Shown piece by piece: positions 2,954-63,753 of a stretch of 64,000 bases of DNA; the stretch's first letter is position 1; every line of letters starts with the position of its first letter. The stretch is from Candidatus Omnitrophota bacterium (GTDB lineage Bacteria > Omnitrophota > Gorgyraeia > Zapsychrales > Zapsychraceae): positions 2,649 to 66,648 of the forward strand of contig JAIORP010000168.1 in NCBI GenBank assembly GCA_021108075.1. The letters are read 5' to 3'. Below the pieces are notes generated by a model that saw only the letters and a program-made list of their open reading frames with translations, was not told where the DNA came from and did no database searches. A program made the translations under genes and the position numbers.

Positions 2954-3035
2954 ATACCAATTCCATTAAATAATGACCAAAACCAATTCTGCTTTTCAGA
3001 ATTAAAATAGAACAATTTATTAATGGATTTGGTAT
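2954..3035 (+). repeat. MITE-like element, short form, copy A. It is 78 bp of element plus flanking TA dinucleotides.
   Basis: ATACCAATTCCATTAAATAATGACCAAAACCAATTCTGCTTTTCAGAATTAAAATAGAACAATTTATTAATGGATTTGGTAT. It has imperfect terminal inverted repeats and a central hairpin AATTCTG-CTTTT-CAGAATT. Near-identical copies lie at 14478, 45874, 47947, 61592 and 63648. Confidence 0.8.
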
Positions 3036-3126
3036 AATCATTTTTTAAACGAATTCCATCATGATGTCAATCTATTTCCTTATTTCAAAAGAGATAAAGA
3101 GATATCAATCGGCGCTTGAGGCGCAC

Positions 3127-3161
3127 CAAAAAAAGCGCCACAGACCGAAATCTGTGACGCT
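3127..3161 (-). terminator. Rho-independent terminator downstream of mscS
   Basis: The stem is GCGTCACAGA/TCTGTGGCGC with loop UUUCGG. On the minus strand it is followed by UUUUUUU (plus-strand A7 at 3128-3134). It lies 20 nt past the stop at 3182. Confidence 0.55.
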
Positions 3162-3181
3162 TTCATATTAAAAAACATAAA

Positions 3182-4045
3182 CTAAACGGTGGCTGCCCCG
3201 ACCGATGATTGCTGCTGTGATGAACCCGTTGGATAAACATGAATGTCCTGTTGTGGATATGGAATAGAAAGCCCTTGTTTTTCTAAAGCCTCTTTGCCTT
3301 TTTCGGTAAGGTCAAAATAAACCCCCCAATAATCAGCAGGCTTAACCCATGGCCGGCACACGAGATTGACACTGCTATCTCCTAATTCAGAAACAGCCAC
3401 AAGCGGTTCCGGATCCTTCAAAACCCGTGGGTCTGATTGGACAAGTTTCATTAAAATTTGCTTGGCTTTTTTCATGTCGTCATCATAAGAAATACCAAAA
3501 ACCATATCAACCCGTCTCTGATCAATCGCGGAAAAATTGGTAATGGTATCACCGGCAACCTTAGAATTTGGAACAATAATTTTCCGGTTGTCCGGAGAGG
3601 CCAGCACCGTGTTAAAAATCTGGATCTCTTTGACAGATCCCATGACTCCGCCGCCTTCAATAAAATCTCCGACCTTAAAAGGTCTGAACAGAATCAGCAT
3701 CACGCCGGCGGCAAAATTTGAAAGTGTGCCCTGCAAAGCCATACCCACAGCTAAACCGGCCGCGCCTAAAATAGCGATAAATGACGTCGTTTGAACGCCC
3801 AACTTGCCGACAGCGGCGATCATCGTAAAAACAAGAATACCGGCGTAAATGATGTTCTTGGTGAACCCGGTTAAAGCGCTGTCCACTTTAGCCTTATCCA
3901 TCACTTTGGCAATGGTTTTTGCAACAAGACCTGCTATCCATTTTCCGACAATATAGATAAAGATAGCGGCTACGAGATTGAGTAAGAATGGAACGCCTAC
4001 ATCAATAATTTTATCAATAATTCCCTGTAGTTCTGAAGATGACAT
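3182..4045 (-). CDS. mscS: Small-conductance mechanosensitive channel (MscS family)
   Basis: 287 aa. It has three N-terminal TM helices and a conserved pore helix region (GAAGLAVGMALQGTLSNFAAGVMLILFRPFKVGDFI). The C-terminal beta/alpha-beta domains are typical of MscS/YbdG. Confidence 0.85.
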   Translation of the reverse strand: MSSSELQGIIDKIIDVGVPFLLNLVAAIFIYIVGKWIAGLVAKTIAKVMDKAKVDSALTGFTKNIIYAGILVFTMIAAVGKLGVQTTSFIAILGAAGLAVGMALQGTLSNFAAGVMLILFRPFKVGDFIEGGGVMGSVKEIQIFNTVLASPDNRKIIVPNSKVAGDTITNFSAIDQRRVDMVFGISYDDDMKKAKQILMKLVQSDPRVLKDPEPLVAVSELGDSSVNLVCRPWVKPADYWGVYFDLTEKGKEALEKQGLSIPYPQQDIHVYPTGSSQQQSSVGAATV

Positions 4046-4230
4046 AAAATCTCCTCTATTATGATTGGTTAGTATTTATCGGTTAAATTTGAAAATATGC
4101 CGCGCTCATTTTCAAATAGAAATAAAATTTTTGTTAAACGTATCCATTAATATAATCGCCTCGCGATGAAAACTCAAGCTTTTTTAAATCACGCTGGCTG
4201 AGGCAGTTACGATCGAATAAAAAGATTGTC

Positions 4231-4259
4231 TTGACATTGCAGTTTAATTTGTTTATTTT
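4231..4259 (+). promoter_or_regulatory. Candidate sigma70-like promoter for the DUF481 gene
   Basis: TTGACA at 4231-4236, a 17-nt spacer, then TATTTT at 4254-4259. A strong Shine-Dalgarno AAAGGAAGG precedes the ATG at 4313. Confidence 0.3.
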
Positions 4260-4312
4260 GGTTGTCAATAGTTTAAATCTTTTATTATCCTATCCAATGA
4301 AAGGAAGGTCGT

Positions 4313-10022: not shown

Positions 10023-10198
10023 ATTTATTTGTAACAGTCGAACTTATATGGCAGACCCGACAACAATCAGCGGCACAATTTGTAAATCATTTAAATAGAA
10101 TAGTTTAAAAAAACGGACACATACCAAAAATACATGTATTCGGTGAACCCCAAAAAAAAATCAAATGGGTCCATTTGTATTTAGGGTGAAAAAAATAT

Positions 10199-10271
10199 CC
10201 GGTTTTGGTCATTATTTAATGGAGTGGATTCCTCTGAGCTCTGCTCCAAGGAAATTCACTGGAACTGGTAT
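10199..10271 (-). repeat. Truncated or interrupted copy of the MITE-like element (one terminal arm)
   Basis: GGTTTTGGTCATTATTTAATGGA ... ACTGGTAT matches the right arm of the element. An extra 36-bp segment lies between TGGA direct repeats. Confidence 0.45.
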
Positions 10272-10281
10272 TATTATTTTT

Positions 10282-13853: not shown

Positions 13854-14330
13854 TTATGCGCTATTCGGCATCAGGCCTTTTTGCATCTTAACAAATGTGA
13901 TCTCATGCTCCAGGAAATCAGGATGGTCCAAATATTCGCCGCTTGAGACAAAACCGTTTTTCTCAAAAAATGGCCGTGACGCATTTCGGGCTATGGCATG
14001 CAAGTTCGCAATCCCCTGACTTCTCACAATTGTTTCAAGCTTAACAAGCATTTTCGTTCCTAACCCACAAGCACGATAATCTTGCCTGATACCGATGTGC
14101 CGCAACTCATAAGAGTCCGTTGACGTTTGATAGGCGATTAATCCGCCCACAAATTGATCTTGATCTTTGATAGCCAGAATCATCTCATACCCGTCCAGAT
14201 TAAAATCATTTTGAATCTCTTTTGATAAACCTAACGGCTCCCAGAGAATTTGCCACATCAACTCATCAACTTTCCGGGCCTGTTCAGACTGGGGAATAAT
14301 AACCTCAATGAGGATTTTATTTTTTTTCAT
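13854..14330 (-). CDS. GNAT-family N-acetyltransferase
   Basis: 158 aa. It carries the acetyl-CoA-binding motif RQDYRACGLGTKML and beta-bulge region. Confidence 0.8.
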   Translation of the reverse strand: MKKNKILIEVIIPQSEQARKVDELMWQILWEPLGLSKEIQNDFNLDGYEMILAIKDQDQFVGGLIAYQTSTDSYELRHIGIRQDYRACGLGTKMLVKLETIVRSQGIANLHAIARNASRPFFEKNGFVSSGEYLDHPDFLEHEITFVKMQKGLMPNSA

Positions 14331-14477
14331 GGCATCCTATCCTGAAAATCTTTGTTTATGTTTTGCCCCACATCAAACCGGCAAATGACACGATAACGGA
14401 ATGACGTGTCGGAGGCAGGATTGATATAGATTAATTCTGATGATCCCCTGTGTTAATCCCTTCAAAAAATACATATG

Positions 14478-14559
14478 ATACCAATTCCATTAAATAATAA
14501 CCAAAATCAATTCTGCTTTTCAGAATTAAGATAGAACAATTTATTAATGGATTTGGTAT
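14478..14559 (+). repeat. MITE-like element, short form, copy C
   Basis: ATACCAATTCCATTAAATAATAACCAAAATCAATTCTGCTTTTCAGAATTAAGATAGAACAATTTATTAATGGATTTGGTAT. It is flanked by the TA-containing ends ATA...TAT. Confidence 0.8.
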
Positions 14560-14749
14560 GATATGCCTCTTTGCAAACCGGACAGCCCAGAACTTTTTCT
14601 TCCCGGGAAGCATTCTCAGTGACAATACACCCGCCTAAAATCATAATCGACAAAAACATAAACAAAATATTTTTTTTGATTTCATTTATATCATATTGAT
14701 TGACCTATTCAATGATGTTGATCGAATACACATGATGGATTCTGCGCGA

Positions 14750-15481
14750 TCAAATTTCAAAATCACAAATAAGCGGGCGATGATCGGAGAAAGCGACCTC
14801 AGGCATGGAAAAATGAGAAACTTTAATGTCAGGACTGTGTAATATAAAATCAATTTCCCTAAATGGACGGCGGCTCGGAAAAGACGGCAAGCCACTATGA
14901 TTCGCGTTAATCAGTTTCGTCTTGTCCAAAAAATCTTCCATTTCATGATCCCCTCTTAAAACATTAAAATCACCGGCTACTATAATCGGCTTTGAAATGG
15001 ACTGCAACTGCTTGCGCAGTTCATCTAATTGATGATGACGGTGTTTGTATTTAATCGACAAATGGACTAAAAAAATGACCACCTGCTCGATTTCTAATTC
15101 AATCATCATCCGTTTTATCCCCTTACGGAAATAATGAATTTTCTTGTTGTGGATGGTTCGGTTCGTCAGAATCGCATTGCCTTGTTTATTGGTTAAGGGC
15201 AATTTCTGCCAAATAGATTTTCGCGCGTATTTCGATTGATAGACGCAGAAATGTTGCAACTGACGGGCAAGGGTGTTCGCTTGACATTCTTTTTGAAAAC
15301 GAACAGAACCGCTGTCAACTTCAAGCAACCCAAGAATATCTGGATTGACGGATTCAACAAAATCGATCAAATGCGAAAACTTTTTATGCGTGCTCCGCAG
15401 GTAACCGCTAAATGGAAACGGGAGATGGAAATGCCACTCGGAGCCGGTTCCGTAACGAATATTGTATAGAAGAAATCGCAT
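14750..15481 (-). CDS. Endonuclease/exonuclease/phosphatase (EEP) family protein
   Basis: 243 aa. It has the N-terminal LLEVD motif and the C-terminal SDHRPL motif typical of the EEP fold. Confidence 0.65.
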   Translation of the reverse strand: MRFLLYNIRYGTGSEWHFHLPFPFSGYLRSTHKKFSHLIDFVESVNPDILGLLEVDSGSVRFQKECQANTLARQLQHFCVYQSKYARKSIWQKLPLTNKQGNAILTNRTIHNKKIHYFRKGIKRMMIELEIEQVVIFLVHLSIKYKHRHHQLDELRKQLQSISKPIIVAGDFNVLRGDHEMEDFLDKTKLINANHSGLPSFPSRRPFREIDFILHSPDIKVSHFSMPEVAFSDHRPLICDFEI

Positions 15482-45320: not shown

Positions 45321-45429
45321 ACTCTGTCCTCCCTAAAGGATACAAACAGATTATCTGAATTTCAAAAAATACGCAAATTCAAAAGACCGCTTCATAAAAC
45401 CTGTCACATTCGTGATCTTAAGCAAGCAC

Positions 45430-45678: not shown

Positions 45679-45873
45679 GCATCTGCCTCCTTTTATGACA
45701 TATACAAAGATAAGTGCCGATGTTATTGATAATATTTTTATATTAAATCTTCATTAATAAGAATAATAGATGCTTTTAAAATAATACCATAAAATAAATA
45801 AAATGCAAAGCCTTTCGTCTTTTTCCTACCCGGCAACGAGACAAAAAAAATTACCTTCCCTATCAGATCAATG

Positions 45874-45978
45874 ATACCAATCCCATTAAATAATGACCAA
45901 AACCGATTCTGCTTTTCTCGACGCTTTAGCGAGAATGTCAGGATTGAAATAAAAACAATTCATTAATGGATTTAGTAT
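45874..45978 (+). repeat. MITE-like element, long form, copy F (about 100 bp of element plus TA flanks)
   Basis: ATACCAATCCCATTAAATAATGACCAAAACCGATTCTGCTTTTCTCGACGCTTTAGCGAGAATGTCAGGATTGAAATAAAAACAATTCATTAATGGATTTAGTAT. The long form equals the short form plus an approximately 22-bp nested hairpin (TTCTCG...CGAGAA) in the central loop. Confidence 0.8.
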
Positions 45979-46125
45979 GGCGATAAAGTAATATCTATCA
46001 AAAATTTTAAAATTATTATTGAACCGGACGGCGAAAAGCTCCCTATCGGTTCGTGTCATCGGTCATCGCGTTCTTTTTATTTCATCCCGGTCCAATAGAA
46101 GTAAAAACCTCAGGGTCTATACCGC

Positions 46126-47331: not shown

Positions 47332-47477
47332 ACTTAAAAATCCAGAGGTCGCTGTTTTAAAGGTTTACAACACCCGTATACTATCGCGATAAATATTGGT
47401 TTATATAATTTTTTAGAATTATTATTAATCCTGAGGTATAAAAGTCAAGTTGTAAATTCACGAACAAAAATCCAGAC

Positions 47478-49151: not shown

Positions 49152-49181
49152 ATAACATCTATTAATAATTGAAAAATTTCA

Positions 49182-49997: not shown

Positions 49998-50178
49998 CCG
50001 GCTTCTCCTTTTTAACAGCTTTCCTTAACTGCCCGACGATAAACTTCAACAGCGAAAAATACATAAAATAAAGTCCTTGAACGATCCAACCGATGAATTC
50101 CGTGTAAAGGCACCGAAGTTTATACGGCAATACCATGGCTACGCTGCAAATAATACATGCGAAAAATTTTTTTAACAT
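49990..50178 (-). CDS. Small hydrophobic protein, translationally coupled between the rSAM and PP-loop genes
   Basis: 62 aa with two predicted TM segments. It overlaps the downstream gene by 8 bp and starts 4 bp after the upstream stop. Confidence 0.3.
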   Translation of the reverse strand: MLKKFFACIICSVAMVLPYKLRCLYTEFIGWIVQGLYFMYFSLLKFIVGQLRKAVKKEKPVE

Positions 50179-50181
50179 TCC

Positions 50182-51633: not shown

Positions 51634-51641
51634 AACATCTT

Positions 51642-52952
51642 TTAGTTTTGAACACGAATCATATCATTCCGGACCACACGCTCATAAATCTTTTGGGCGA
51701 TCAAATTATGCCCCACAGCGTTGGGATGAATCGTATCACCATCCGGGTCCAGAAACAAATATTGCGCATTATTCATTTGATTAAATTTTTTAAACTCTTC
51801 AACAATATCAACAACGACAATCTTCCTGTCATCAGCTACCTTTTGCATTATATCATTATAAACCCGGGATAAAGAAGCACACTCATGCAGTTCCATCTCA
51901 ACACTTTTCTTATAGAAAGCGTGACTGCGGTCGGACTGCCGCAGGACCTCATGATATTGCCCCAGATAATAATATGTTTCACTCGAGTGGGGATGATAAG
52001 CCAATGCTTGATTCAGCATTTGAATCGCCTTTTGATAGTCTTCTTTCCCGGCAGCCTTCAGGGCGTGCTGAATGAATTGATCCGACTGAGATCGGTTCTT
52101 TTCAGAAACAGGATCAACGGACGGCAAATTAACAGGCATCTTAATAAAAACAATTTGGATCCCTTCCTGGTGGGCGATACGCACAAAATCCAGCAGGTTC
52201 TTTGCATACGATTGATCTGAGACCCTCCGGTTTGTCATATAATAACGTTGCCCGGTTTTTCCAAAATATTGCATGGCGGTCGATGAGGATCGAACCATCA
52301 AGCGTTTTAATAACGCGACAAAGTGACTGCGGCTCAGAATGTTATCAACGGCAATCAATAGGGGTGAAATGGGTTCCAATTCCATATCACTCTTTCCATT
52401 GCTTCGAAAGAAGCGATGCTTATCGACATCATTAATGACATAGGAAACCGTTATCAAGTCCGGCTTTAATGATAATATGGATTTCTTTAACAACTTCAAA
52501 CCTTGAAAGGAACTGTAACCAATGGACCCCGCGTTCATCACTTCCACGCGCTGAGCCTTTGTTTGACCGGATTGAAGCAGATCCTGCAAGCGATGGGCAT
52601 ATGTTTGTTCTTGACCGACGCCCCATCCGAATGTCGGTGACGCCCCCAGGCAAACAATACGGAAGACATCTTGCCCTTTGCCAGTCACCGGGCCGGACCG
52701 GAAGCCGAATTGATTTGTCTTGATCAACTTCCCGGAAAAGGATGTTGACAAATGAACGCGTTGCTTCCAGAACAAATCGAAATCTTGTTCTAAAACAGCC
52801 AGAATGTGTTCCATCGGTGTCTTATGACGCGTGAGAAGATATCCCAGCCCTTCAAAAAACAGTAAAATAAACAAAAAAAAGACAGCCGCAATGAATGGGC
52901 CTTTATATTTGTCCATAAAGATGGAACCTCTCGCGTATCCCAAAATAATCAA
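51642..52952 (-). CDS. SGNH/GDSL-type hydrolase with an N-terminal TM anchor and TPR-like segment
   Basis: 436 aa. It has a GDS-like block IVCLGASPTFGWG and a C-terminal DPDGDTIHPNAVGH (the SGNH D-x-x-H block). Confidence 0.55.
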   Translation of the reverse strand: MIILGYARGSIFMDKYKGPFIAAVFFLFILLFFEGLGYLLTRHKTPMEHILAVLEQDFDLFWKQRVHLSTSFSGKLIKTNQFGFRSGPVTGKGQDVFRIVCLGASPTFGWGVGQEQTYAHRLQDLLQSGQTKAQRVEVMNAGSIGYSSFQGLKLLKKSILSLKPDLITVSYVINDVDKHRFFRSNGKSDMELEPISPLLIAVDNILSRSHFVALLKRLMVRSSSTAMQYFGKTGQRYYMTNRRVSDQSYAKNLLDFVRIAHQEGIQIVFIKMPVNLPSVDPVSEKNRSQSDQFIQHALKAAGKEDYQKAIQMLNQALAYHPHSSETYYYLGQYHEVLRQSDRSHAFYKKSVEMELHECASLSRVYNDIMQKVADDRKIVVVDIVEEFKKFNQMNNAQYLFLDPDGDTIHPNAVGHNLIAQKIYERVVRNDMIRVQN

Positions 52953-53012
52953 TCTATGAATGCAAGATCACACCTGATATTGTCGGAATTAGTCAGGATG
53001 AAATAAACCTCT

Positions 53013-53222
53013 TTAAAATAAAGCATAAATCGCCGGCAGTATCGACTGATTTCCTGTGAGGCTAATAAACAAACCTAAGAAGGCTAAAACGAAAAGAAAC
53101 GGCAATAACCACCATTTCTTATTTTCCTTTATCAAAATGTACAGTTCCATTAATAATTCTATATTTGATTCAAAACGTGATTTCTTAGGCTTACCCTTTT
53201 TTGTTCCACTATATTTGTTCAT
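53013..53222 (-). CDS. DUF5989-like small membrane protein
   Basis: 69 aa. The core ELYILIKENKKWWLLPFLFVLAFLGLFISLTG..AIYALF is recalled from memory, unchecked, to resemble DUF5989 proteins. The true start may be an internal Met. Confidence 0.4.
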   Translation of the reverse strand: MNKYSGTKKGKPKKSRFESNIELLMELYILIKENKKWWLLPFLFVLAFLGLFISLTGNQSILPAIYALF

Positions 53223-53448
53223 CTGATGCTCTTTTGTTCTCGTAAGACATGAAATGATTTTACCACTGATATATTTTAATCCTCAATGAGAATAAATAAA
53301 ATAAAAACTTTCTGTTCCTATCCCGCACGAGCCAAAAAAATGATGAGCACGCGCAAAGGCTGATTAACACCACACAAGTATAACATCCATCCCGTTTTAT
53401 ATCTTGAATAATACCAAATCCCCTCTCTGTTGGCACATTCGGACTGAA

Positions 53449-54765
53449 CTAGGCGACGTGCACCTTTTTTTCACCGAACAAATAATAACGGATTTTTTTC
53501 ACGAAACGGCCCCGGTTGTGCCGCAGGACCAGGCGCCGTAAAATAAAACGGAAAACGGAAAACTTAAAAATCAACCGCACATTAGCCCACATCTGCCACC
53601 TCTTATGCTTAAGAACCTCTTCATCCGATGGCAAAGCCTTGCCGGAAGACTGTGACATCAACGGCTTAAAAATATTATAATGAATAAAGTCAAAATCAAA
53701 CCGGCGCGATTGACGGATGTCGGCCTTCACCTCGGACAGTGTCTGCCCCGGCAAACCAAATATCAGGCTGCAACAAATTTCGACCCCGAGGTCTTTGCAC
53801 CGTTGCACGACATCAGCGACCGTCTGAGAAGATTGCCTGCGGCGGTTTCTTTGCGTGAGCGTATCATGAAACGATTCAACACCTAATGATATGCTGTAAC
53901 AACCGGCAGACGCCATCGCATCGATCACATTCAGGTCTGTCATTTCACTTAGAGGGATCACGCCCGCGCATTGCCACTCAATAGTGTCCGGACGCTCCCC
54001 GATAAGGGCACACAGGCCTTTGATTCTTTTAATATCATGACCGATAAAGTTCTTATCCTCAACGTGAAACTCCCTGATGCCATATTTGTCAACCAGATGC
54101 GCCATTTCATCAACAATGTTTTGTGGTGACCGGACACGATAAGGCTGGCCGATAACAGATTCAGCGCAGTAGGAACATTTGTGCACACAACCACGGCTGG
54201 TTACTATCTGAGCGTAAATCTTTTGACGCGTGAGCATACCATTTGCATACTGCCCGACAGAAAAAGAGTCCCGGTCCGGAAACGGTAAATCATCAAGGTT
54301 ATTGATCAACGCGAGCTCCCCCGCACGCGTGCGCGTTGTTTGCCGGTTCAATACGCCTTTAATGTTATAATCACGATTTTGTGTGAGGGCCTGACATACC
54401 TCAGAAAAAGCGTACTCCGCGTCCCCTCGGATGGTCGCCTCGATCCCGGGGATCAAAGCGAACAAGTCCTTGCCGGCCAATGTTGCATACTCCCCCAGAG
54501 CGACGACACGGACAGGCTGAAGGCTTTGAATGTTCCGGCACAGGTCTGCCGTGTACGGGTTCATATCAGACGCGACATCTATCCCGACAAGATCAATGCG
54601 TTCCTCTCTCATAATGGATAAAACCATATCGGCCGGATCAAAAAACAAATCAACACCCCGGACACGCCAACCCTTTTTCTTCTGTATCGCGGCGATGGTT
54701 CCCAATGTAAACGGAAAAATTGGTTCCATGTTATGTTTAGGAATATTGATCAATAATAGATTCAT
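53449..54765 (-). CDS. B12-binding domain radical SAM protein (class B)
   Basis: 438 aa. It has a CxxxCxxC motif (SRGCVHKCSYCAE) preceded by a B12-binding-like N-terminal domain. Confidence 0.85.
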   Translation of the reverse strand: MNLLLINIPKHNMEPIFPFTLGTIAAIQKKKGWRVRGVDLFFDPADMVLSIMREERIDLVGIDVASDMNPYTADLCRNIQSLQPVRVVALGEYATLAGKDLFALIPGIEATIRGDAEYAFSEVCQALTQNRDYNIKGVLNRQTTRTRAGELALINNLDDLPFPDRDSFSVGQYANGMLTRQKIYAQIVTSRGCVHKCSYCAESVIGQPYRVRSPQNIVDEMAHLVDKYGIREFHVEDKNFIGHDIKRIKGLCALIGERPDTIEWQCAGVIPLSEMTDLNVIDAMASAGCYSISLGVESFHDTLTQRNRRRQSSQTVADVVQRCKDLGVEICCSLIFGLPGQTLSEVKADIRQSRRFDFDFIHYNIFKPLMSQSSGKALPSDEEVLKHKRWQMWANVRLIFKFSVFRFILRRLVLRHNRGRFVKKIRYYLFGEKKVHVA

Positions 54766-54792
54766 AGCGAAACAATTTATCTTTGCAGAGAG

Positions 54793-56229
54793 TCAGGACC
54801 TTTTCTTATGGAGTATTTTTTTGAAACTTGTTAATTCAAAAAACACATCCCTATTCAACAAGTAAAACAAACCATACTTGAGCAGATGATGGATAAAATA
54901 GGACAGCCGCAGATAAAAAGAGCGGTAAAACAGAACGTACATCTGTTTCGTCGTCTCCATATCCATTTGACTGAAATTGACCGGATGATCTTGATAATGA
55001 TAGGTCTCGCGTATCTTTTCCTTGAGCCGGCTATCGTCAATTTGGGCGTAATAACTGGATCCCGGATAAGCGGTAAAATAACACAACTGCAGCAAGTCCG
55101 GCCGCAGATCCCGCGACAGTTGGATATTATTCAGGACATCCTGCGCTGTCTCTCTCGGACAACCAACCTGAAACATAGCCAACGTGTCTATTTTTAAGGC
55201 CCGGGCCGATTGAAAGACTTCCAGCGCTTGCTGGACCCATATGTCCGGTCGTTTAGATTTTTTGATATGATTTAAAACCTCGACGGAGGAAGATTCTATT
55301 CCAAAACGCAATTGAATACACCCGGCCTTGCGCATAAGCTTTAAAAGATCAACAGATAGTTCGTCCACTCTTGCATGGGACGTCCATTCGATACGAATAC
55401 CCGCGCCCAAAAGAGCGTTGCAAAATGCCCGCACGTGATTGGCTAAACATGTAAAATCATCGTCCGCGATATACAGCATATTCACACCTAAAGCCTGCAA
55501 AGCCTTAATTTCTTCGATGATCAATCCCGGATTACGGCAACGGACCTGAGCCCCAAAGCTCTCGCGGGTCACCTGCGAACAAAATACGCAGGCATGTGGG
55601 CAACCCCGTGTTGTCAAGATATGCCCCCAGACAAGTTTATGATAAAAAGTTAATGGATAAAAAATCTTGTACTTCAACAGTTCCTCACGGGAATAACCTG
55701 GCGCGGGCAAAAGGTCCAGATCCGTGACCCGGGCGATGGATTGATCGGCAAAGGCCATGCTGCACAGACCGGGAACCCCGAGGGGTGTCTGCCCCTGTTC
55801 TAAGGCATCCAGAAGTTCCAGGAAGGACAACTCCGGCTCCCCTCTAATGACACAATCAACAGGAGAGTCGGCATGGATATACCGCCAAGGCTCGGCAGAA
55901 GGATCTTGACCGATGGCAACGATATATGGATTTAATTTCATTTTCATCTCACGCGCGAATGATAAAACCAAGTCCTGTTCGGTGGTCATGGCACTCATAA
56001 GAATAATATCCGGTTTCCATTTGAGCACACCGGATATCAGTGTTTCAAACGGCAAGGGAGAAATCCATGAATCAAAAAAATAAGTTTCATAGAAAATTTT
56101 GGTTTTAAGGAGGGCCTCGATATATTTGAGATAAAAAGGCACACGGATATCTCGCGTGTGGCCGGCTTCTTTAACAACAGTCGCCATCGGCCGCCATAAA
56201 AATATCCTTATTTTCTTTCTATTTTTCAT
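54793..56229 (-). CDS. B12-binding domain radical SAM protein (class B)
   Basis: 478 aa. It has a CxxxCxxC motif (TRGCPHACVFCSQ). Confidence 0.85.
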   Translation of the reverse strand: MKNRKKIRIFLWRPMATVVKEAGHTRDIRVPFYLKYIEALLKTKIFYETYFFDSWISPLPFETLISGVLKWKPDIILMSAMTTEQDLVLSFAREMKMKLNPYIVAIGQDPSAEPWRYIHADSPVDCVIRGEPELSFLELLDALEQGQTPLGVPGLCSMAFADQSIARVTDLDLLPAPGYSREELLKYKIFYPLTFYHKLVWGHILTTRGCPHACVFCSQVTRESFGAQVRCRNPGLIIEEIKALQALGVNMLYIADDDFTCLANHVRAFCNALLGAGIRIEWTSHARVDELSVDLLKLMRKAGCIQLRFGIESSSVEVLNHIKKSKRPDIWVQQALEVFQSARALKIDTLAMFQVGCPRETAQDVLNNIQLSRDLRPDLLQLCYFTAYPGSSYYAQIDDSRLKEKIRETYHYQDHPVNFSQMDMETTKQMYVLFYRSFYLRLSYFIHHLLKYGLFYLLNRDVFFELTSFKKILHKKRS

Positions 56230-56279
56230 AAATATTTCTTCCGACGATCGTCCATCATCCCGCTAAAAAACAGCACCTG

Positions 56280-57734
56280 TCACACCGAATGGTTCAAAAG
56301 CACTTCCAAGCCGGCTTTCAACATCATCTTTCTGCGATAATGGCTCTTCGCTCCGAAAAATTCCCGGATAACAAATGTGGGGCGCAGATAAAATTTGCGA
56401 ATGGCCCTGTTGCGAAACTCCCATACCTGTCTGGCTGACAATTGAGAAGATTCCCAAACCGGTTGCCCGATTGAATGATCAACTTCGATCTTCGGGTCGA
56501 AAATTTTGTTATTTTTTTCCAAGGCATCACGAAAAGATGTATCCCAAGCGGGGTTTGCGATATTAAAAGAAACATAATTCGGGTCGAGCTCAATGCAAAA
56601 ATCGATAAGCCGTTGAAGAGAAAGCTCATCCTCTCCTTGCATCCCTACGATAACATGCGCGAGCGTCCTGATGCCCAACTGTTTAGCCAGGTGAAACGCT
56701 TCTTTTGTCCTTTGCAGTGATATATTTTTGTTGTGCTTCCTTAAAATGTTTTCGCTTGCTGACTCAACACCAAACATGATGGTATGGCAACCGGATTTTT
56801 TCATCGCCTTAAGCAACGTTTCATCAGCCTTATCCGTGCGCATCTCACAACTCCAGGAAAACGGATGGCTCACTTCTTCAAATAAACGGCAAACAGCATA
56901 CGCCTGCTCACGATGTGAACCAAAACATTGATCTCGAAAAAACAATTCCCTTATACCCATCGATTTGATCGACCGCAACTCCTGCTCAATGCTTTCAATG
57001 GTCCGCAATTTAAAAGGAATTCTTTCGTAAGGACAATAGGAACAGGCGTGCATGCATCCAAACGTCGTTAGGATCGTCGTGAACGGATGACACTGAATGT
57101 GGGGCAGATGATAGCGCTTTATGGGAAAAAGATCATGACGGGGTGGCGGGTAGGAACACGCTTCGTTGACCGCAACGATTTCTTCATGCATTGATTCACG
57201 CGTCATGATATTGACAATGGAATCCGAATGAGGATTGAAAACATAACTGAGAATCCCACAATGAGAAAAATCCAAAACAATCGCATCAATACATGTATTT
57301 TCCGTTAATACCTGACGCGGATAAATTCTCGAATAATCCCCGGAAACAATGATCAACGCTGACGTCTTTTGGGACAATTTGCTCAAAAATCGCATATCGG
57401 AACGCCAATTCACAGCAGCGACCATGCAAATAATAATATCCGGACTGAAGGATTGGATTTCTTCAAGTGTTTTGTCCTCGCTAAGGGGCATCACCATCGC
57501 ATCGATGACCGACAGATCACAATCATCCTGGAGCATCCCGCTAAAGACCAGCAGGTCCTGAGGCAGCCAGAGATAATTCCCCTTGGCCAAATGGCTGCAA
57601 TAATAATCGCGAATGACCCCTTTTCTGGCAGGTGGATTCAGCAATAAAACTTTCTTTTTCATAAGCAATACCTTTACCTGTACCGATATATAACGCCTGT
57701 GAATCATCGGCTCCATCATCCACGACGCTTCCAC
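56280..57734 (-). CDS. B12-binding domain radical SAM protein (class B)
   Basis: 484 aa. It has a CxxxCxxC motif (TFGCMHACSYCPY). Confidence 0.85.
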   Translation of the reverse strand: MEASWMMEPMIHRRYISVQVKVLLMKKKVLLLNPPARKGVIRDYYCSHLAKGNYLWLPQDLLVFSGMLQDDCDLSVIDAMVMPLSEDKTLEEIQSFSPDIIICMVAAVNWRSDMRFLSKLSQKTSALIIVSGDYSRIYPRQVLTENTCIDAIVLDFSHCGILSYVFNPHSDSIVNIMTRESMHEEIVAVNEACSYPPPRHDLFPIKRYHLPHIQCHPFTTILTTFGCMHACSYCPYERIPFKLRTIESIEQELRSIKSMGIRELFFRDQCFGSHREQAYAVCRLFEEVSHPFSWSCEMRTDKADETLLKAMKKSGCHTIMFGVESASENILRKHNKNISLQRTKEAFHLAKQLGIRTLAHVIVGMQGEDELSLQRLIDFCIELDPNYVSFNIANPAWDTSFRDALEKNNKIFDPKIEVDHSIGQPVWESSQLSARQVWEFRNRAIRKFYLRPTFVIREFFGAKSHYRRKMMLKAGLEVLLNHSV

Positions 57735-57735
57735 T

Positions 57736-58926
57736 TCAGAGCAAATCTTTCAAAGCAAATCCCTGGGCTTTTTGACGAAAAGATTTTTTGGCATAATGCG
57801 CGCATTTCAACTTGATCGCGCCATGCGGGCAACTTTCATAACATCCAAAACATGATAAGCACTTCTTTATATAAATGGGTGTTTTCCCGCTTGTGATCGC
57901 ACCGGTCGGACAAATATCCGCACATTTGCGGCAGTCCCGGCATAAATCCTTTATAGCATAAGGCCGTATTAACGACGACCTTAACTTAAAAAAAATATAA
58001 TCCTTTACGATGCCAACAACGTTCCGGGAAGATAATGTCGGCAACTGAAAAGATCGACGGCCGATTTGCCCGGTGTCACCGGCCACGGAAATTTTATCCA
58101 AGTCACAGGGACCCAAACCAACATCCCGGGCGATACGCGTGATGAGAACATCTTCCGGGGCAATCCCGATCAAATCACTGCAGACAGCGTCTAAGGCCAC
58201 CAGGTTATCACTACCGGCGATAAAATGACTACGGACAACCGATCCGGAACTCGGCCCCTGACCTTCCATCGCCCAAATGGCATCCATCAAGGCAAAATCA
58301 AATGCAACAAAAACGTTTAAATCCACAATCGCCCGCGCGAGCGCATCTAATCCAGGGGCCAATAAATGCATGCGGGCTTTCAGGCATCCGGGGATCACGC
58401 CCATTTGATTTTTTAAGGCGCCGGTGTAAAGCGACAAACTGTGCGTTTTAAGTTTGGGCAATGAAATCCGATAGTCAACTTCCTGAAGAAGTTTCGGTAA
58501 ATACATTTCTTTTAAACGATGGCCGTTTATGTGTTGCTTCTTTAGCGCGCAGGCGTCAAAATTAACCCACTCCACAGCTTCTTCCCGCGCCACTTTAATG
58601 ATTCCGGCAATGTCTAAGGCTTCACGGGTGAAACCATATATGACAGATGATTCTCCGATGATCGGCCGTCCCCGCAATTTTTTTATGGCCCGCACAACTC
58701 CCCGGACAAACTCAGGATGGGTGTGACTGGCTTCGCCGGGATCTTTTGGAATGGCGATGCTCGGTTTCAATAAAACTCTTTTGTTCTTGAACGCATGTTC
58801 CAGGCCAAAAACATCAAAAATGTCCAAAACCTTTTGTTCAACATGATGATAATCATCGCAAAATTTTAAGACGACTTTTTCATTTTTCTCTGTTTTTTTG
58901 GAGTTCATATAATTTTTTGCGTTCAT
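57736..58926 (-). CDS. DUF362 domain protein fused to a C-terminal 2x[4Fe-4S] ferredoxin domain
   Basis: 396 aa. The C-terminus has two CxxCxxCxxxCP motifs (CRDCRKCADICP and CLSCFGCYESCP). It ends 1 bp before the rSAM gene. Confidence 0.65.
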   Translation of the reverse strand: MNAKNYMNSKKTEKNEKVVLKFCDDYHHVEQKVLDIFDVFGLEHAFKNKRVLLKPSIAIPKDPGEASHTHPEFVRGVVRAIKKLRGRPIIGESSVIYGFTREALDIAGIIKVAREEAVEWVNFDACALKKQHINGHRLKEMYLPKLLQEVDYRISLPKLKTHSLSLYTGALKNQMGVIPGCLKARMHLLAPGLDALARAIVDLNVFVAFDFALMDAIWAMEGQGPSSGSVVRSHFIAGSDNLVALDAVCSDLIGIAPEDVLITRIARDVGLGPCDLDKISVAGDTGQIGRRSFQLPTLSSRNVVGIVKDYIFFKLRSSLIRPYAIKDLCRDCRKCADICPTGAITSGKTPIYIKKCLSCFGCYESCPHGAIKLKCAHYAKKSFRQKAQGFALKDLL

Positions 58927-59129
58927 CCCTGATCTTTTCCATTTGATGAGCCTGCAGATTCCAGGAACACCTCATTCATCCGCCCCGAACGATATAAAAT
59001 CCTGTATATTTTTTTCGCATTATATCAGGCATTAAATCTTTTCAAATCGTTTTTTAATATTTACGCTATCAAGACGTTATGTATATATTTAACTGTTGAT
59101 AAATAGGAATACTTATATATTATAGTGAA

Positions 59130-61448
59130 ATGAGAATGAAATGGAAAAATATTATATTACCTCTTGGGGCTACTCTCCTTCTTGCGCTCGGAACGCTGAT
59201 CTATTTTCTTGTCGCCCGTCAACAATTCGTAAAGTGTTATACCTCTGATGTGATCTTTTTATTTATGGGCATTATCCGGCAAGGGTTCTCTTTACCTTTT
59301 GAGCGGTTCGGCCAATTAATAGCGTTGTTTCTCCTGGGGCTGAACACCCTATTAATTCTATGTTTCGTTTATATCTATAAATCTGAATTCGCCAAAAAAC
59401 ATTTCAAAATTTTGACATTGATCAGTATGATCATTCATCTATCCTATCAAACACTTTACCTCCATTCAAACCTGGCCTGGATTGCGTTTGGGGTTCTGCT
59501 CCTGCTCATTATTTTTGAACACCTCCTCAAAGGAACCGGCCCTTTAAACAGGCCATTCTATCTCGATGCCGTCAACAGGTCAACGTCTGTCCGCCTTCTC
59601 AGCCTGGTCCTGATAACCGCCTTGCCGTTCTTTTACAAATTTCCTGTGACCAGGTTCAATCAACTGATCTTTCAAGACGACTACCCAAAATACTTATATT
59701 TTGCCAGATATCATTTAAACATCCTGAAAAATGGAGCTCTTTTCGGATGGAACGATCAATTTTCCGGAGGGTTCCCAAGCTTTCTGGACCTAAGATTACT
59801 CAGCCTGCCCTTTCTGCCTTTTTCTTTCTTCGGCGATAACATCGGTTTTCATCTAATGATCACGGCATTCTACCTGACGCTTCCCCTTCTCATTTATGCG
59901 CTGACGATTCAAATAAATAATGATAAAACAACCGCCTTTATCAATGGCCTCGTTTGTGGTTTTGCCCAGATGGCCTATTTCGGAGACATGCTGGAATGGG
60001 GCATGCTGCCTGGATTTATTTCGATTTGGCTCATGGTGCTTTCCCTTATATTTATTGAACGCTTTTATCAAGACAAAGCGTTCAGCCTTTTTTATCTCAG
60101 CCTCACCTTAGGATTAATGTTTTATATTCATTTTATATCACTCGCTTCGACGGTGTGCCTGTTATTTTTTAGAACGCTAGCCCAAACATTCCTGTTAAAA
60201 AAAAGAGTATCCGCAAAAAAATTACTATTCATGTGCCTATTCGTCACACTCATTGTCTTACCTTTTCTCCTACCCATGATCCGATACAATCGTTTTATTA
60301 TTCCAACATCAAACTTTTTTGATCAAAGTGACAGTGGGTCCTTAATCTTCCATTTTTCCGATATGTTGCGAACCTATCTCATCCTGCCGGTATGGCTGCT
60401 CGATACCCCCCACTACAGAAGCCTTTGGATGATTCTCCCGCTGGCCATCATGCTTTTCTTTCGCGATGAGCGGGCAAAAAAAAACGCCATATATTTATTT
60501 ATCATTCTGATCATCGCTTTTGGAGGACCCTTCTTCAATACACAATTCACGGCCCGGATTAAATTTATTGTGCCCATTTTTATTGCACTGATTGCGGGCG
60601 TTTGGATCGTCGATCCTTCCGGAAAATTTTCTTTGTCACGCTTCCTGATGATATTATTGGTCTGTTCCTTCATGCTCACAACAAATTCTTTGTCAAAACC
60701 TATCCGCCATATACCTCATATTGCTGATTTTAAACCGCATCTCATTCAAGAAATCACGCGAGCGAACGGACAGTTAATCTTACTTGAAAACACGGCAAAT
60801 CTTAATCCGTACAAGAACCTCTTTGAAGAACATGTTGAATCCGGCTATCCGCATTTTGAAGGAAGTCTTGCGTCGCACACGGAAAGACGCTTTTTATCCC
60901 ATTATGGTACCGATTCCTATCCGTATTTTATTTTTCGAGAAGGGCTGATCCTCTCTGGAGTGTCCAATGGCGACGATATCGCAAAAATCCATATTAAAGA
61001 TATGATCCGCATATTGGATAAATGGGGTATTCAAAATGTCGTGGTATTTAGCTCAAAGGCGAAAAATTATTTTTATAACGCCCATCCCTATTTTGATCGA
61101 ACGTTCCAAGACGAAGGCTTTGAAATGTTCACCTTAAAAGACCGCCAGTCCGGGGATGACAAAATAAAAACACAGACCCTGAACCCTTTTCACAAACAAA
61201 TCACACTTAAAAATATTGCGCGGGGTGAGACGATCACGCTGAAAACAAACTATTTTCCCGCCTGGAAGGCTTTTCATGGAAAGCATAAAGTTGAAGTATT
61301 CAATGATAACGGGCAACTGTCTTTTCTATCACCGACGGAAGGGAATGTAAAGATTGACCTTTATTTTCCCCGATACTATCCTTTGCTCATCATAAGCTTC
61401 GTAGCGATCTTAACGTTTTATATCCTATCCTGGAAAAAATGCTTTTAA
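59130..61448 (+). CDS. Large polytopic membrane protein (YfhO/GT-C-like), divergently transcribed from the rSAM island
   Basis: 772 aa. It has about 14 or more N-terminal TM helices, a soluble domain of about 230 aa and a final C-terminal TM helix. This architecture resembles the YfhO glycosylation proteins. Confidence 0.5.
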   Translation: MRMKWKNIILPLGATLLLALGTLIYFLVARQQFVKCYTSDVIFLFMGIIRQGFSLPFERFGQLIALFLLGLNTLLILCFVYIYKSEFAKKHFKILTLISMIIHLSYQTLYLHSNLAWIAFGVLLLLIIFEHLLKGTGPLNRPFYLDAVNRSTSVRLLSLVLITALPFFYKFPVTRFNQLIFQDDYPKYLYFARYHLNILKNGALFGWNDQFSGGFPSFLDLRLLSLPFLPFSFFGDNIGFHLMITAFYLTLPLLIYALTIQINNDKTTAFINGLVCGFAQMAYFGDMLEWGMLPGFISIWLMVLSLIFIERFYQDKAFSLFYLSLTLGLMFYIHFISLASTVCLLFFRTLAQTFLLKKRVSAKKLLFMCLFVTLIVLPFLLPMIRYNRFIIPTSNFFDQSDSGSLIFHFSDMLRTYLILPVWLLDTPHYRSLWMILPLAIMLFFRDERAKKNAIYLFIILIIAFGGPFFNTQFTARIKFIVPIFIALIAGVWIVDPSGKFSLSRFLMILLVCSFMLTTNSLSKPIRHIPHIADFKPHLIQEITRANGQLILLENTANLNPYKNLFEEHVESGYPHFEGSLASHTERRFLSHYGTDSYPYFIFREGLILSGVSNGDDIAKIHIKDMIRILDKWGIQNVVVFSSKAKNYFYNAHPYFDRTFQDEGFEMFTLKDRQSGDDKIKTQTLNPFHKQITLKNIARGETITLKTNYFPAWKAFHGKHKVEVFNDNGQLSFLSPTEGNVKIDLYFPRYYPLLIISFVAILTFYILSWKKCF

Positions 61449-61591
61449 TCCGAAACAATTCTTTTTTAACATTTTCCAACCAGGGTTCATATTGCAAATA
61501 CGGCAACAGGTTCGCGTCCCGTTCACGCAGGACAACAAAACATGCCTTCCGGCATGGATTCTGGAAAAAAATCTTGCGCGGGTGCCTCATT

Positions 61592-61695
61592 ATACCAATT
61601 CCATTAAATAATGATCAAAACCAATTCTGCTTTTCTCGACGACTTAGCGAGAATATCAAAATTAAAATAGAACAATTTATTAATGGATTTGGTAT
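61592..61695 (+). repeat. MITE-like element, long form, copy H
   Basis: ATACCAATTCCATTAAATAATGATCAAAACCAATTCTGCTTTTCTCGACGACTTAGCGAGAATATCAAAATTAAAATAGAACAATTTATTAATGGATTTGGTAT. Its terminal T is the first base of the TAA stop (minus strand) of the 61695..62804 gene. Confidence 0.8.
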
Positions 61696-62804
61696 TATTC
61701 TTTCAGTACGACGTCTGAGAATTGCAATTTATGAGAGAAGGGCACAAAGAAGAGAAGTCCTAAAAGGACAGGAACGATCTGGTGCACGAAAAACACCAAT
61801 AATCCCAATGCGAGTAGCGTTTCTTTCGGCGCGAAATGCGCCAAAAAAATAATATACGCCCCTTCCCGCACGCCAAAGCCCGATATGGATACAGGCAGTT
61901 GAGTCAGCAGCACCACCAATGGCATATACAAAAACAAGGCCCCGAGGGGGATCACCAGACCATAGGAACGCGCGAACACAAAGCAGATCAATAATTCAGA
62001 AATTTGATAACCCATGGACAAGACAAGCAAAAACAACAACTTTTTAAGCGACAAACCATGCCATAGGTCTATATTTTTTTTAAAGAGCTGAAATAACCGC
62101 GATTCTCTGGCAAAACAGAACAAAAAAAGAATTTTCTTCGCGGTTTCTTTTTTAAGGATAAACAGACACAAGGAAAACATCACAACCACACCCATGACCG
62201 CCATGATCATAAAATATTTCTGATAAATTATCAACTCTCCCTGCCGCATGCCATAAAGCAAACAACCGAGTGCGAAAAAAATTAAAATTGTAATCAGATG
62301 AATAATATTGGCAATCACATTGGACAATAAGCCTTCTATGAGGGGAACATGATGATACTTCTTCAAATAGTAGACTGAAAAAATCTCGGTATTCTTAACA
62401 GTAGGAATAAGTTTGTATGGCAGGCTCCCGCAACGGATAAACAGCGCATTCATATACGACATAGGATAGTTCATATACGCCAGTATTGTCTGCTTAATAA
62501 ACGCGCACAAAAAAATATTCAACAAGATGGAAATGGCTATACCTGTCAGCAGGGAGGCGCTCTTAACCCGGGAGATAAGCTGGAAAGTTTGTTGGAAGTC
62601 AACAACCGATTTCAAATAATAGAAAATGACACATGTGACAGCGAGAATAATGATGAAAGACAGAATAAGCCTTAAGAGGTGTCGATCAAAAAAATTTAAT
62701 AAAATTCTTTCATCTTTCATCATATTGAAATAAAGCCCACCAAAGAATAAATTTTGATGAAAAATATCATTCTTTGAACGGACGACCCCAGCGGCCCTCT
62801 CCAA
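61695..62804 (-). CDS. Flippase-like UPF0104 membrane protein (lysylphosphatidylglycerol-synthase TM-domain family)
   Basis: 369 aa with about 8 TM helices. It is encoded 1 bp downstream of a GT2 gene. Confidence 0.55.
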   Translation of the reverse strand: MERAAGVVRSKNDIFHQNLFFGGLYFNMMKDERILLNFFDRHLLRLILSFIIILAVTCVIFYYLKSVVDFQQTFQLISRVKSASLLTGIAISILLNIFLCAFIKQTILAYMNYPMSYMNALFIRCGSLPYKLIPTVKNTEIFSVYYLKKYHHVPLIEGLLSNVIANIIHLITILIFFALGCLLYGMRQGELIIYQKYFMIMAVMGVVVMFSLCLFILKKETAKKILFLFCFARESRLFQLFKKNIDLWHGLSLKKLLFLLVLSMGYQISELLICFVFARSYGLVIPLGALFLYMPLVVLLTQLPVSISGFGVREGAYIIFLAHFAPKETLLALGLLVFFVHQIVPVLLGLLFFVPFSHKLQFSDVVLKE

Positions 62805-62805
62805 G

Positions 62806-63561
62806 TTAAGTAATATTTTTAACGGCTTTTTTTTGTCGGGATGCCAAACGATATAAATCCCTCAGCGCTTCAATGATAACTTCCAGACTGGCGCCCGTTT
62901 GCTTTCCCTGCACGCGGGGGAAATGGGCAACGGGAACTTCCTTTATCCGGCACCCCTTTTCTCTGGCTTGAATAAAAAAATCCGTATAAAAAACACCTGC
63001 GTGACAGTCAAATTCATCAAAGTTAAAACGATCTTTTTTAAACAGTTTAAATCCGCAATTTATATCCTTCAAGCTTAAATCAAACAACCGGCAGGCAAAC
63101 CACGTATACATCTTCCCCAGTAATATACGGTACACGGAATCCCGGCGATGAGACCGATATCCCGTGATAATGTCATCGTCTTCGAGAAATGGCTGCATAT
63201 CTACGAGTGAAGAAATTTGAAATTGACCATCCGCGTCCATAAAAAGGATGGACGAATATTGAGCGATGTGAAGCCCTGAAAGAAGCGCCGCGCCATAGCC
63301 CTCATTTTCAGAATGCGTGACAACTTTTAACGATGGATAGCGTGCGGCAGCGTCTTTTAAAAATTGAGCGGTTTTATCGCGGCTCCCGTCATCAACAACA
63401 ATCACTTCATATCTTAAAAAAAATGTTTGTTTTGATAAATAATCATATGTGTCGCTTAATGTTTTACCTATAATATCCGCTAAATCATACGAGGGCAAAA
63501 CGACCGATATAGCATCTTTATTCATATTCTTCCTTTTTGAATCGGGCTCGACCGTAATCAA
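62806..63561 (-). CDS. Glycosyltransferase family 2 (polyprenol-phosphate sugar transferase, DPM1-like)
   Basis: It has VVLPSYD, VVDDGSRD and FMDADGQ (DxD) motifs. The true start is probably the internal MNKDAIS at about 63525. Confidence 0.8.
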   Translation of the reverse strand: MITVEPDSKRKNMNKDAISVVLPSYDLADIIGKTLSDTYDYLSKQTFFLRYEVIVVDDGSRDKTAQFLKDAAARYPSLKVVTHSENEGYGAALLSGLHIAQYSSILFMDADGQFQISSLVDMQPFLEDDDIITGYRSHRRDSVYRILLGKMYTWFACRLFDLSLKDINCGFKLFKKDRFNFDEFDCHAGVFYTDFFIQAREKGCRIKEVPVAHFPRVQGKQTGASLEVIIEALRDLYRLASRQKKAVKNIT

Positions 63562-63647
63562 CCGCTAACACCTGTTCCGCGACTCTTAAAAGGGCCCGAT
63601 AAAAGCCATTTCAATTCATTGAGATAAAATGCGTTTGGTTAAAACTC

Positions 63648-63751
63648 ATACCAAATCCATTAATGAATTGTTTTATTTCAATTCTGATATTCTTGCCTTA
63701 GCGTCGAAAAAAGCAGAATTGGTTTTGGTCATTATTTAATGGAATTGGTAT
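63648..63751 (-). repeat. MITE-like element, long form, copy I
   Basis: ATACCAAATCCATTAATGAATTGTTTTATTTCAATTCTGATATTCTTGCCTTAGCGTCGAAAAAAGCAGAATTGGTTTTGGTCATTATTTAATGGAATTGGTAT. Confidence 0.8.
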
Positions 63752-63753
63752 TA

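Follow-up and report, generated by a model that had tools for sequence, protein, structure and literature searches.

Stowaway-type miniature inverted-repeat transposable elements (MITEs) derive from Tc1/mariner-type transposases, and Tourist elements, whose parent is PIF/Harbinger, make 3-bp TNA/TAA duplications. By ISfinder/Repbase conventions, a 3-bp TNA duplication is a hallmark of the IS5 (IS1031) and PIF/Harbinger families; Zator may likewise make 3-bp duplications. In bacteria, RUP of Streptococcus pneumoniae is a MITE of ~107 bp with many intergenic copies and terminal inverted repeats (TIRs) that match IS630-Spn1, and it is thought to be mobilised in trans (PMC2229807). Here we analyse 64 kb of DNA (the window) from contig JAIORP010000168.1 of a Candidatus Omnitrophota metagenome-assembled genome (MAG; GenBank assembly GCA_021108075.1, positions 2,649 to 66,648), in which a first-pass annotation made without database searches had noticed a dense family of TA-flanked, MITE-like repeats. 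We are confident that these repeats are non-autonomous MITEs of a widespread IS630-family clade whose elements have the ends TACCAAT...ATTGGTA and make a 3-bp TNA duplication. The family is new but belongs to an already known class, the bacterial MITEs, and among the by-products of the analysis the most interesting is the atypical length of the duplication made by its parent clade.

Target-site duplication and parent-type elements

The first-pass annotation had read each full copy as an element of 78 or 100 bp bounded by TA on both sides, and had taken this TA to be the duplicated target. In the aligned copies, the bases immediately left of ATACC and right of GGTAT are usually identical rather than complementary. 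Across 87 non-redundant elements the left flank reads T-N-A (T at position -3 in 82/87, A at -1 in 82/87), as does the right flank (T at +1 in 84/87, A at +3 in 81/87), and positions -4 and +4 are without conservation. Where TNA stands on both flanks, the middle base is concordant in 60 of 76 elements (permutation mean 29.9, p<=1e-5) and complementary in only 9. Given these flanks and their identical middle base, the structure is TNA-[TACCAAT...ATTGGTA]-TNA. The duplication is therefore 3 bp long and not a 2-bp TA; the TA seen earlier constitutes the first two bases of the element itself, outside which TNA is duplicated, and the element lengths become 80 bp for the short form and 102-103 bp for the long form.

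Empty-site comparison, which had been proposed as the check on a TA duplication, leads to the same result: a duplication is seen, but of 3 bp. The empty sites come from related genomes and metagenomes. For a 209-bp relative, the filled site gggaaTTA[TACC..GGTA]TTAaacc in L069 corresponds to gggaaTTAaacc in five empty copies of a second interspersed repeat. For a 104-bp long form, gacTAA[..]TAAatatcgc in L003 and L100 corresponds to catcTAAatgtcgc in the empty L071, and for a 109-bp copy, caaaaTAA[..]TAAtttgaggg in L036 and L122 corresponds to caaaaaTAAtttgaggg in the empty L017. All three empty sites hold a single TWA, whereas the filled sites hold two. No empty alleles of the window's own copies were found in the other samples that carry these genes (L050-L056); these either show the same filled alleles or are broken at the copies. 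Tandem copies also occur exactly 3 nt apart (L007, L013), as expected if one element inserts into the existing duplication of another.

The IS630 link made in the first-pass annotation is borne out by autonomous elements with the same termini. In the metagenome locus L064 (199-1342), termini with 31-bp TIRs lie 1144 bp apart between TAA/TAA flanks and enclose a 349-aa open reading frame (ORF). The product scores 216.5 bits against the NCBIfam IS630 family equivalog NF033545 (cutoff 100) and 93.5 bits against Pfam DDE_3; it also contains HTH domains and, as a GRPR-like motif, RPGRGRKPR. At E<=1e-20 it has 642 homologs, most of them on contigs of ~1.1-1.4 kb. One of them, P0028, is 77% identical to the L064 transposase and is annotated as 'IS630 family transposase [Candidatus Omnitrophica bacterium]'; its 1141-bp element, with a left end (TACCAATTCCATTAAATAATTACGG) that matches the window MITE at 20/20 bases, is present at at least four different sites and has TTA/TTA wherever both flanks are readable. 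The insertion sequences (ISs) in L140, L141 and L064 have the same 20-bp terminus, TACCAATTCCATTAAATAAT, as the MITEs. More distant relatives in L147 and L146 have TACCAAT ends and TTA/TTA flanks each, and in cultured Gammaproteobacteria, at a protein identity of 41-45%, an Aeromonas caviae element is flanked by TTA/TTA and a Spartinivicinus ruber element by TGA/TGA. The IS630 attribution of the parent-type elements is right, and the 3-bp duplication is a property of the whole parent clade.

The repeats themselves are shorter than 300 bp, have TIRs in common with autonomous ISs of the IS630 family, show the duplication in filled and empty sites and are dispersed to many sites and genomes, the features by which MITEs are recognised. 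As to the mechanism, the 349-aa DDE transposase (HTH domains plus DDE_3) would be supplied in trans and bind both terminal repeats, excise the element by cut-and-paste and, making a 3-nt staggered cut, integrate it at TNA, most often TAA or TTA; repair of the cut would leave the 3-bp direct repeat. We infer from the common termini that it is this type of transposase that mobilises the MITEs, and a gene for it is presumably present now, or was formerly, in this genome.

It is tempting to go further and to propose a single cross-phylum IS630-family clade, with a 3-nt stagger and TNA duplication, that spans Omnitrophota, Bdellovibrionales, Bacteroidia and Gammaproteobacteria (cultured Aeromonas, Spartinivicinus and Psychromonas), moves MITEs as small as 46 bp and homes to TAA/TGA stop codons. 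We regard this proposal as tentative, the odds being somewhat against it in this full form. If true, it would contradict the stated rule that all IS630-Tc1-mariner (ITm) elements duplicate TA. Since the element itself starts with TA, TNA-duplicating elements are easily mis-scored as TA duplicators.

Copies in the window and distribution of the family

The window holds six full copies (c1-c6), one 138-bp variant and three to four remnants. These are listed below by window position, each copy as the span that includes its flanks, together with the neighbouring genes and the one gene that hosts a copy.

2952-3037, plus strand: c1, short form; element 2955-3034 (80 bp), TAA (2952-2954) / TAA (3035-3037); between a TPR gene (1252-2841, minus) and an MS-channel gene (3182-4045, minus)
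10189-10273, minus strand: truncated, rearranged remnant; left arm from position 9, an inserted hairpin of ~30 bp and another, diverged terminus with the end ...CTGGTA, then TTA
14476-14561, plus strand: c2, short form; element 14479-14558 (80 bp), TGA / TGA; between an acetyltransferase gene (13854-14330, minus) and an Exo_endo_phos gene (14750-15481, minus)
30406-30432, plus strand: solo left terminal repeat with 1 mismatch in 20, TTA before; between GlgE-like and PLD-like genes
37142-37186, minus strand: half copy, right arm only (37145-37186), TTA before
37187-37330, plus strand: 138-bp variant; element 37190-37327, TIRs TACCAATTCCGTTAAATAAT / ATTATTTAACGTAATTGGTA, flanks TTA / TCA
45872-45980, plus strand: c3, long form; element 45875-45977 (103 bp), TGA / TGG, one mismatch; downstream of a GT9 gene (46126-47331, minus) and upstream of three small Cys-rich ORFs
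47478-49133, minus strand: host gene of c4; 551-aa glycosyltransferase family 39 (GT39; PMT_2) protein P0001, annotated in a Candidatus Omnitrophica MAG
47945-48052, minus strand: c4, long form; element 47948-48049 (102 bp), TTA / TTA
53409-53421, plus strand: possible 10-nt terminal remnant TACCAAATCC, TAA before; borderline
61590-61697, plus strand: c5, long form; element 61593-61694 (102 bp), TTA / TTA
63646-63753, minus strand: c6, long form; element 63649-63750 (102 bp), TCA / TTA, one mismatch

A profile hidden Markov model built from the six copies re-finds all of them in the window with nhmmer at E 1e-20 to 1e-32, and the six copies lie at the coordinates given in the first-pass annotation. 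Besides these, the profile matches one diverged copy of full length (37189-37294), half a copy at 37144-37185 and, at 10189-10225, a fragment. Among the fragments proposed earlier, the one at 37144-37328 is in fact the complete 138-bp variant (37190-37327) beside a half copy (37145-37186). The window has 13 occurrences of the terminal 11-mer ATACCAAWTCC, compared with 0.16 predicted by shuffling; the possible further 11-mer at 53411-53421 is borderline, ~0.16 such matches being expected by chance, but TAA precedes it. Repeat detection grouped the window copies together in both orientations, as had been noticed before. The terminal consensus ascribed to every full copy does not hold for c3 (45874-45978), the copy with the most diverged ends in the window (CCAATCCC... 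/ ...TTTAGTAT).

Each element consists of two ~21-bp TIRs (TACCAATTCCATTAAATAAT), A-rich spacers and a central hairpin, which in the short form is AATTCTG-CTTTT-CAGAATT. The forms differ by one 22-bp internal block, which makes the nested TTCTCG...CGAGAA hairpin of the long form; both hairpins are present as originally described. A further full copy of the short form lies just past the window on the same contig (L049 28-107) and constitutes the eighth full copy, so the density is 8 copies on a 72.6-kb contig. This contig is ERZ26872899 NODE_53, where exact protein matches put the window at record positions 2601-66600. At such a density a Mb-scale genome would be expected to hold about a hundred copies or more. 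The impression of an unusually high density was thus justified. Short-k (Logan) contigs of the same organism (L053) begin and end inside c2 and c1, which is expected for a high-copy repeat. Among the long copies, c4 and c5 are 96% identical. Short-form c2 is 96% identical to c1 and has the 22-bp internal deletion in common with it, and the three short copies at three loci have a common deletion, different duplications and 95-96% identity. The 80-bp form derives from the 102-bp form by this internal deletion of 22 bp and was dispersed after it.

In the genome-collection scan, many long-form copies were found in the MAGs CAZIRV01 (labelled uncultured Planctomycetales) and JAJDCA01 (Candidatus Omnitrophota OFTM38), among the matches listed. 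As the first pattern used there (TACCAAWTCCATTAAWDAAT) was too degenerate and many of its single matches were due to chance, only paired or profile-confirmed loci were kept. The metagenome scan added dozens more copies, giving more than 80 in other loci overall; a scan of viral contigs gave no match to the family. Elements with the same 20-21-bp termini and unrelated interiors occur in Bdellovibrionales MAGs, in Paraglaciecola chathamensis and on other metagenome contigs, with lengths of 46, 53, 69, 81, 139, 177-180, 194, 209-212 and 263-276 bp. The minimal, 46-bp elements (L057 10478-10523, L078 1796-1841 and L076 3239-3284) comprise the two terminal repeats and ~6 central bases, and the one in L057 is flanked by TTA/TTA. 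They suggest that the termini alone are enough for mobilisation.

The 138-bp composite is also found in L033, at a site whose flanks are not orthologous to those of the window (37183-37328). A shared ancestral insertion is thereby ruled out and the composite is a propagated variant. We also observed the same 2-3-base change in both TIRs of three elements (L017 1599-1703, L019 1978-2081 and window 37190-37327), the left repeat going from TTCCATT to TTACGTT and the right one from AATGGAA to AACGTAA. Such paired changes fit either co-variation with a variant transposase or homogenisation of the ends.

Two other repeats may be recorded here. The second interspersed repeat mentioned above is ~125-130 bp long, has three short hairpins that contain GC (cctcggagcaagccctcgagg ... 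cgaggcaagcctcgg ... attggcagaat..ttggccaat) and is present at at least 10 sites of CAZIRV/VAPK Omnitrophota-like contigs (L066 3801-3935 and 9795-9922, L103, L065, L007, L098, L029, L089, L111, L136 and L017) and absent from the window; one of its copies is the insertion target of a MITE and the source of an empty-site comparison given above. A unique near-perfect palindrome lies upstream of a TamB-like gene of the window (35696-35789), with 46-nt arms that are 93% complementary and 2 nt apart; neither in the window nor in the fetched loci was another copy of it seen. As for the remaining content of the window, nearly all genes are on the minus strand and comprise housekeeping genes, envelope genes and a radical-SAM cluster. 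An Rfam scan of the window at gathering thresholds returned 0 matches, and a tRNA scan of it found nothing.

Stop codons, reading frames and hairpins

Several copies are closely tied to the ends of genes. An LPG_synthase_TM gene (61695-62723, minus) has as its TAA stop codon the right duplication of c5 (61695-61697), and a phosphofructokinase gene (37328-38401, minus) has as its TGA stop codon the right duplication of the 138-bp variant (37328-37330); c6 lies directly against the stop codon of a radical-SAM gene (63754-63756). In 6/87 elements overall, a duplication coincides with the stop codon of an ORF with 80 or more codons. The bias toward gene 3' ends follows from the fact that TAA and TGA stop codons fit the TNA target, and no terminator role is needed for it. 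As the stop codon is regenerated by the duplication, an insertion at a gene 3' end does no harm, and copies accumulate there. The role of terminator suggested for the copies in the first-pass annotation did not hold up: of the four copies in 44500-64000, none is overlapped by a terminator-like site. A terminator-like hairpin does occur downstream of c5 (61556-61541), which places c5 in the 3' untranslated region (UTR), between the stop codon and that hairpin. The orientation of copies relative to transcription is mixed (3 vs 2, plus one between convergent genes).

Junctions of the Correia repeats of Neisseria can create outward -10-like motifs. A similar observation can be made here, as the terminus and the duplication together, ...TTGGTA-TAA-T, read TGnTATAAT, a perfect extended -10-like motif that faces outward (window 3027-3038, 61589-61618 and other copy ends). 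The putative motif is located at the TGGTATAAT junctions, and in a motif scan 61618-61589 (minus) scores 10/12 with a TG. The left ends of c1, c2 and c6 point at the start of the next gene, 90-150 bp away.

Almost all copies had been placed in intergenic gaps, but c4 (47947-48050) lies in-frame inside the called 551-aa GT39 gene. Together with one duplication it amounts to 105 bp, or 35 codons, which are read as IPIPLNNDQNQFCFSRRFSENIRIKIEQFINGFGI, and the N-terminal membrane domain and the conserved C-terminal domain of the protein remain in one frame. An alignment with eight homologs shows IPIPLNN...FINGFGI to be inserted into a variable loop, the 35-aa segment being missing from the homologs; the loop lies just ahead of the last hydrophobic segment and the conserved C-terminal domain. 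The target was probably the TAA within codons TTA-AAA. No other in-frame genic insertion was seen among ~86 elements, as a 351-bp 'element' in an ORF of L133 turned out to be a chance 20-mer in a MORN-repeat gene.

Two features of this neighbourhood deserve mention. There are two GT39/PMT_2-like genes 3 kb apart (42952-44691 and 47478-49133), flanking small-peptide ORFs and the GT9 gene, and only the second has a MITE. The small-peptide ORFs are three tandem paralogs of 82-84 aa (44787-45041, 45072-45320 and 45430-45678, all minus) between the GT39-like and GT9 genes, each with a hydrophobic segment at the N-terminus, an AEAQ/AQAQ-Cys junction and 4-6 cysteines, and all with a common ...RPY(V/L)PARY..LC tail. 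They have no Pfam match, and considering that they stand beside five radical-SAM/B12 genes (50182-57734), they could be secreted or modified peptides.

The claim that both strands of the element keep an ORF is true of c4 only. The best frame is open in 10 (plus) and 13 (minus) of 52 family members, compared with ~5% in shuffles, and no ORF is conserved across the family, which has no coding capacity of its own. The copies do give rise to spurious ORFs, as had been anticipated. In public gene calls, a 137-aa 'gene' (window 61439-61852, plus; L049 7075-7488) is a read-through of c5 and a 36-aa 'gene' (window 63650-63760 region; L049 5188-5298) a read-through of c6; both are annotation artefacts.

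Both strands of both forms fold as a long hairpin; for the long form the two strands give -30.5 and -32.2 kcal/mol, with z-scores of -7.3 and -6.0. We tested pairing with a hand-specified structure (the TIR stem plus the central two-part hairpin) in 49 long-form copies. In this test 88.8% of cells are paired, as opposed to 30-46% with slid partners, and in the TIR stem (helix 1) the figure reaches 96%. There are 17 double-change cells vs 5.7 in shuffles. The hairpin is conserved, with some compensatory changes such as TGCT/AGCA to GGCT/AGCC and TTCTCG/CGAGAA to GTCTCG/CGAGAC. There is modest evidence for selection on pairing; however, since slid controls give similar double-change counts, we make no claim of a selected RNA structure. 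RNAalifold finds the TIR stem alone in the 49-copy alignment, missing the central hairpin because subfamily indels shift the register. One might speculate that the hairpin serves to bring the two close termini together.

Alternative explanations and relation to known systems

The most obvious alternative is a classical IS630/Tc1-mariner (Stowaway-type) MITE, in which the element is CCAAT...ATTGG and the duplication a 2-bp TA. TA-CCAAT...ATTGG-TA can indeed be read in every copy, the parent transposase belongs to the IS630 family, and ITm elements are said to duplicate TA (PMC8533490). Such an element, however, should have unrelated flanks outside TA, whereas T-N-A stands on both sides with an identical N in 60/76 elements. 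At the empty sites it would need an extra A on one side in one case and an extra T on the other side in another, and in the GT39 gene its 98+2 = 100 bp would shift the frame, whereas the observed 102+3 = 105 bp keep it. We therefore consider this explanation highly improbable. An IS5 (IS1031 group) or PIF/Harbinger-type (Tourist-like) MITE would account for the 3-bp TNA/TWA duplication. Yet the autonomous elements found with these termini all encode DDE_3 transposases of the IS630 family, and no DDE_Tnp_1 or DDE_Tnp_4 gene lies between TACCAATTCCATTAAATAAT termini in ~1 Mb of fetched loci, leaving this origin just as hard to accept. REP/BIME sequences were considered and rejected as well: these are RAYT-mobilised palindromes of 20-40 nt with a GTAG head and neither TIRs nor duplication, while the elements here measure 80-138 bp and have 21-bp TIRs and a 3-bp duplication.

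It could also be argued that the repeats are host-selected at the RNA level, as terminators, mRNA stabilisers, RNase III sites or small RNAs, and that their spread is secondary. The stable folds of both strands, the excess of paired and double-change cells over slid partners and shuffles, respectively, and the 3' UTR or intercistronic position of most copies all speak for this. On the other hand, there is no Rfam match, the four copies in 44500-64000 lack a terminator-like site (the stems are AT-rich with no T-run after, and the terminator-like hairpin near c5 lies further downstream), orientation is mixed, and terminal pairing is explained by the TIRs, covariation being weak and similar in slid controls. 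Moreover, the duplications, the empty sites and the coding insertion show that the copies were placed by transposition, and a primary RNA function is very unlikely. Least credible of all is an RPE-like element specialised for in-frame insertion into protein genes with its frame maintained. It would fit c4, which is in-frame in a conserved GT39 gene, is open on both strands and with its duplication (102+3 bp) is divisible by three. But just 1 of ~86 elements is in a long ORF, the L133 case being a chance match, open frames are limited to 10 and 13 of 52 copies, and neither the short form (80+3 bp) nor c3 (103+3 bp) is divisible by three.

Several observations weigh against our own interpretation of the repeats as TNA-duplicating MITEs of an IS630-family clade. 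The paired duplications have one mismatch in 2/6 window copies and in ~20% of all copies, although this is expected from age. All ITm elements have been described as TA duplicators (PMC8533490), so that 3 bp is atypical for the assigned family. The parent transposase with the same TIRs, which the first-pass annotation had suggested looking for, was found in the metagenome and genome scans, but no transposase gene is present in the window or on its 72.6-kb contig, the one contig of this MAG that was covered, which leaves the mobility of the copies in this genome today unproven. The MITE and the Omnitrophica IS have no obvious sequence in common past the first 20-21 bp, so that the MITE may not be a direct deletion derivative of that IS. 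Finally, the central hairpin is kept with some compensatory changes, which simple parasitism does not require. In the literature we found no description of a 3-bp duplication in the IS630 family, ISfinder being outside this search, and nothing on MITEs of Omnitrophota or Bdellovibrio; in either case absence is no proof of novelty.

For transposon biology, clean evidence of TNA duplication by an IS630-family transposase comes from three empty sites, from 76 pairs of flanks and from full-length copies found in isolates. If not already recorded, this corrects the rule that ITm elements always duplicate TA and indicates that a terminal TA can mislead boundary calls. With regard to genome evolution, the TNA target explains a high MITE density in a compact genome, stop codons being safe, regenerated landing sites. 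On the practical side, the copies create false genes in public MAG annotation and break short-k assemblies, and a family model would clean Omnitrophota MAGs, all of which are uncultured. The 35-residue in-frame insert in GT39 provides a natural test of the tolerance of a membrane enzyme to a transposon-derived peptide.

Compared by description, the family has in common with RUP its size, its many intergenic copies and its TIRs matching an IS630 element. However, RUP inserts at TA, whereas the Omnitrophota family duplicates TNA, and the two are found in different phyla. Correia/NEMIS elements of Neisseria are similar in their ~24-bp TIRs, high copy number, long-hairpin transcripts (Correia) and two size classes that differ by one internal block (107/155 bp, vs 80/102 bp here). 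Nonetheless, Correia duplicates TA and no parent transposase is known for it, while here we have both TNA and a parent-type IS630-family element. The resemblance to RPE of Rickettsia concerns a palindromic repeat of ~100-150 bp tolerated in-frame in conserved protein genes, as c4 is in GT39; here, in contrast, in-frame insertion is rare (1 of ~86), no ORF is maintained, and there are clear TIRs, duplications and a parent IS. Canonical IS630/ITm elements agree with the parent, which scores above the cutoff of the NCBIfam IS630 equivalog and contains DDE_3, HTH domains and the GRPR-like motif, but ITm elements are described as duplicating TA, and Sailor TATA (PMC8533490), instead of the TNA of this parent clade. 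With the plant MITEs Stowaway and Tourist, the Omnitrophota family shares architecture and the logic of trans-mobilisation, and unlike either of them it pairs a Stowaway-like parent (Tc1/mariner/IS630) with a Tourist-like TNA duplication.

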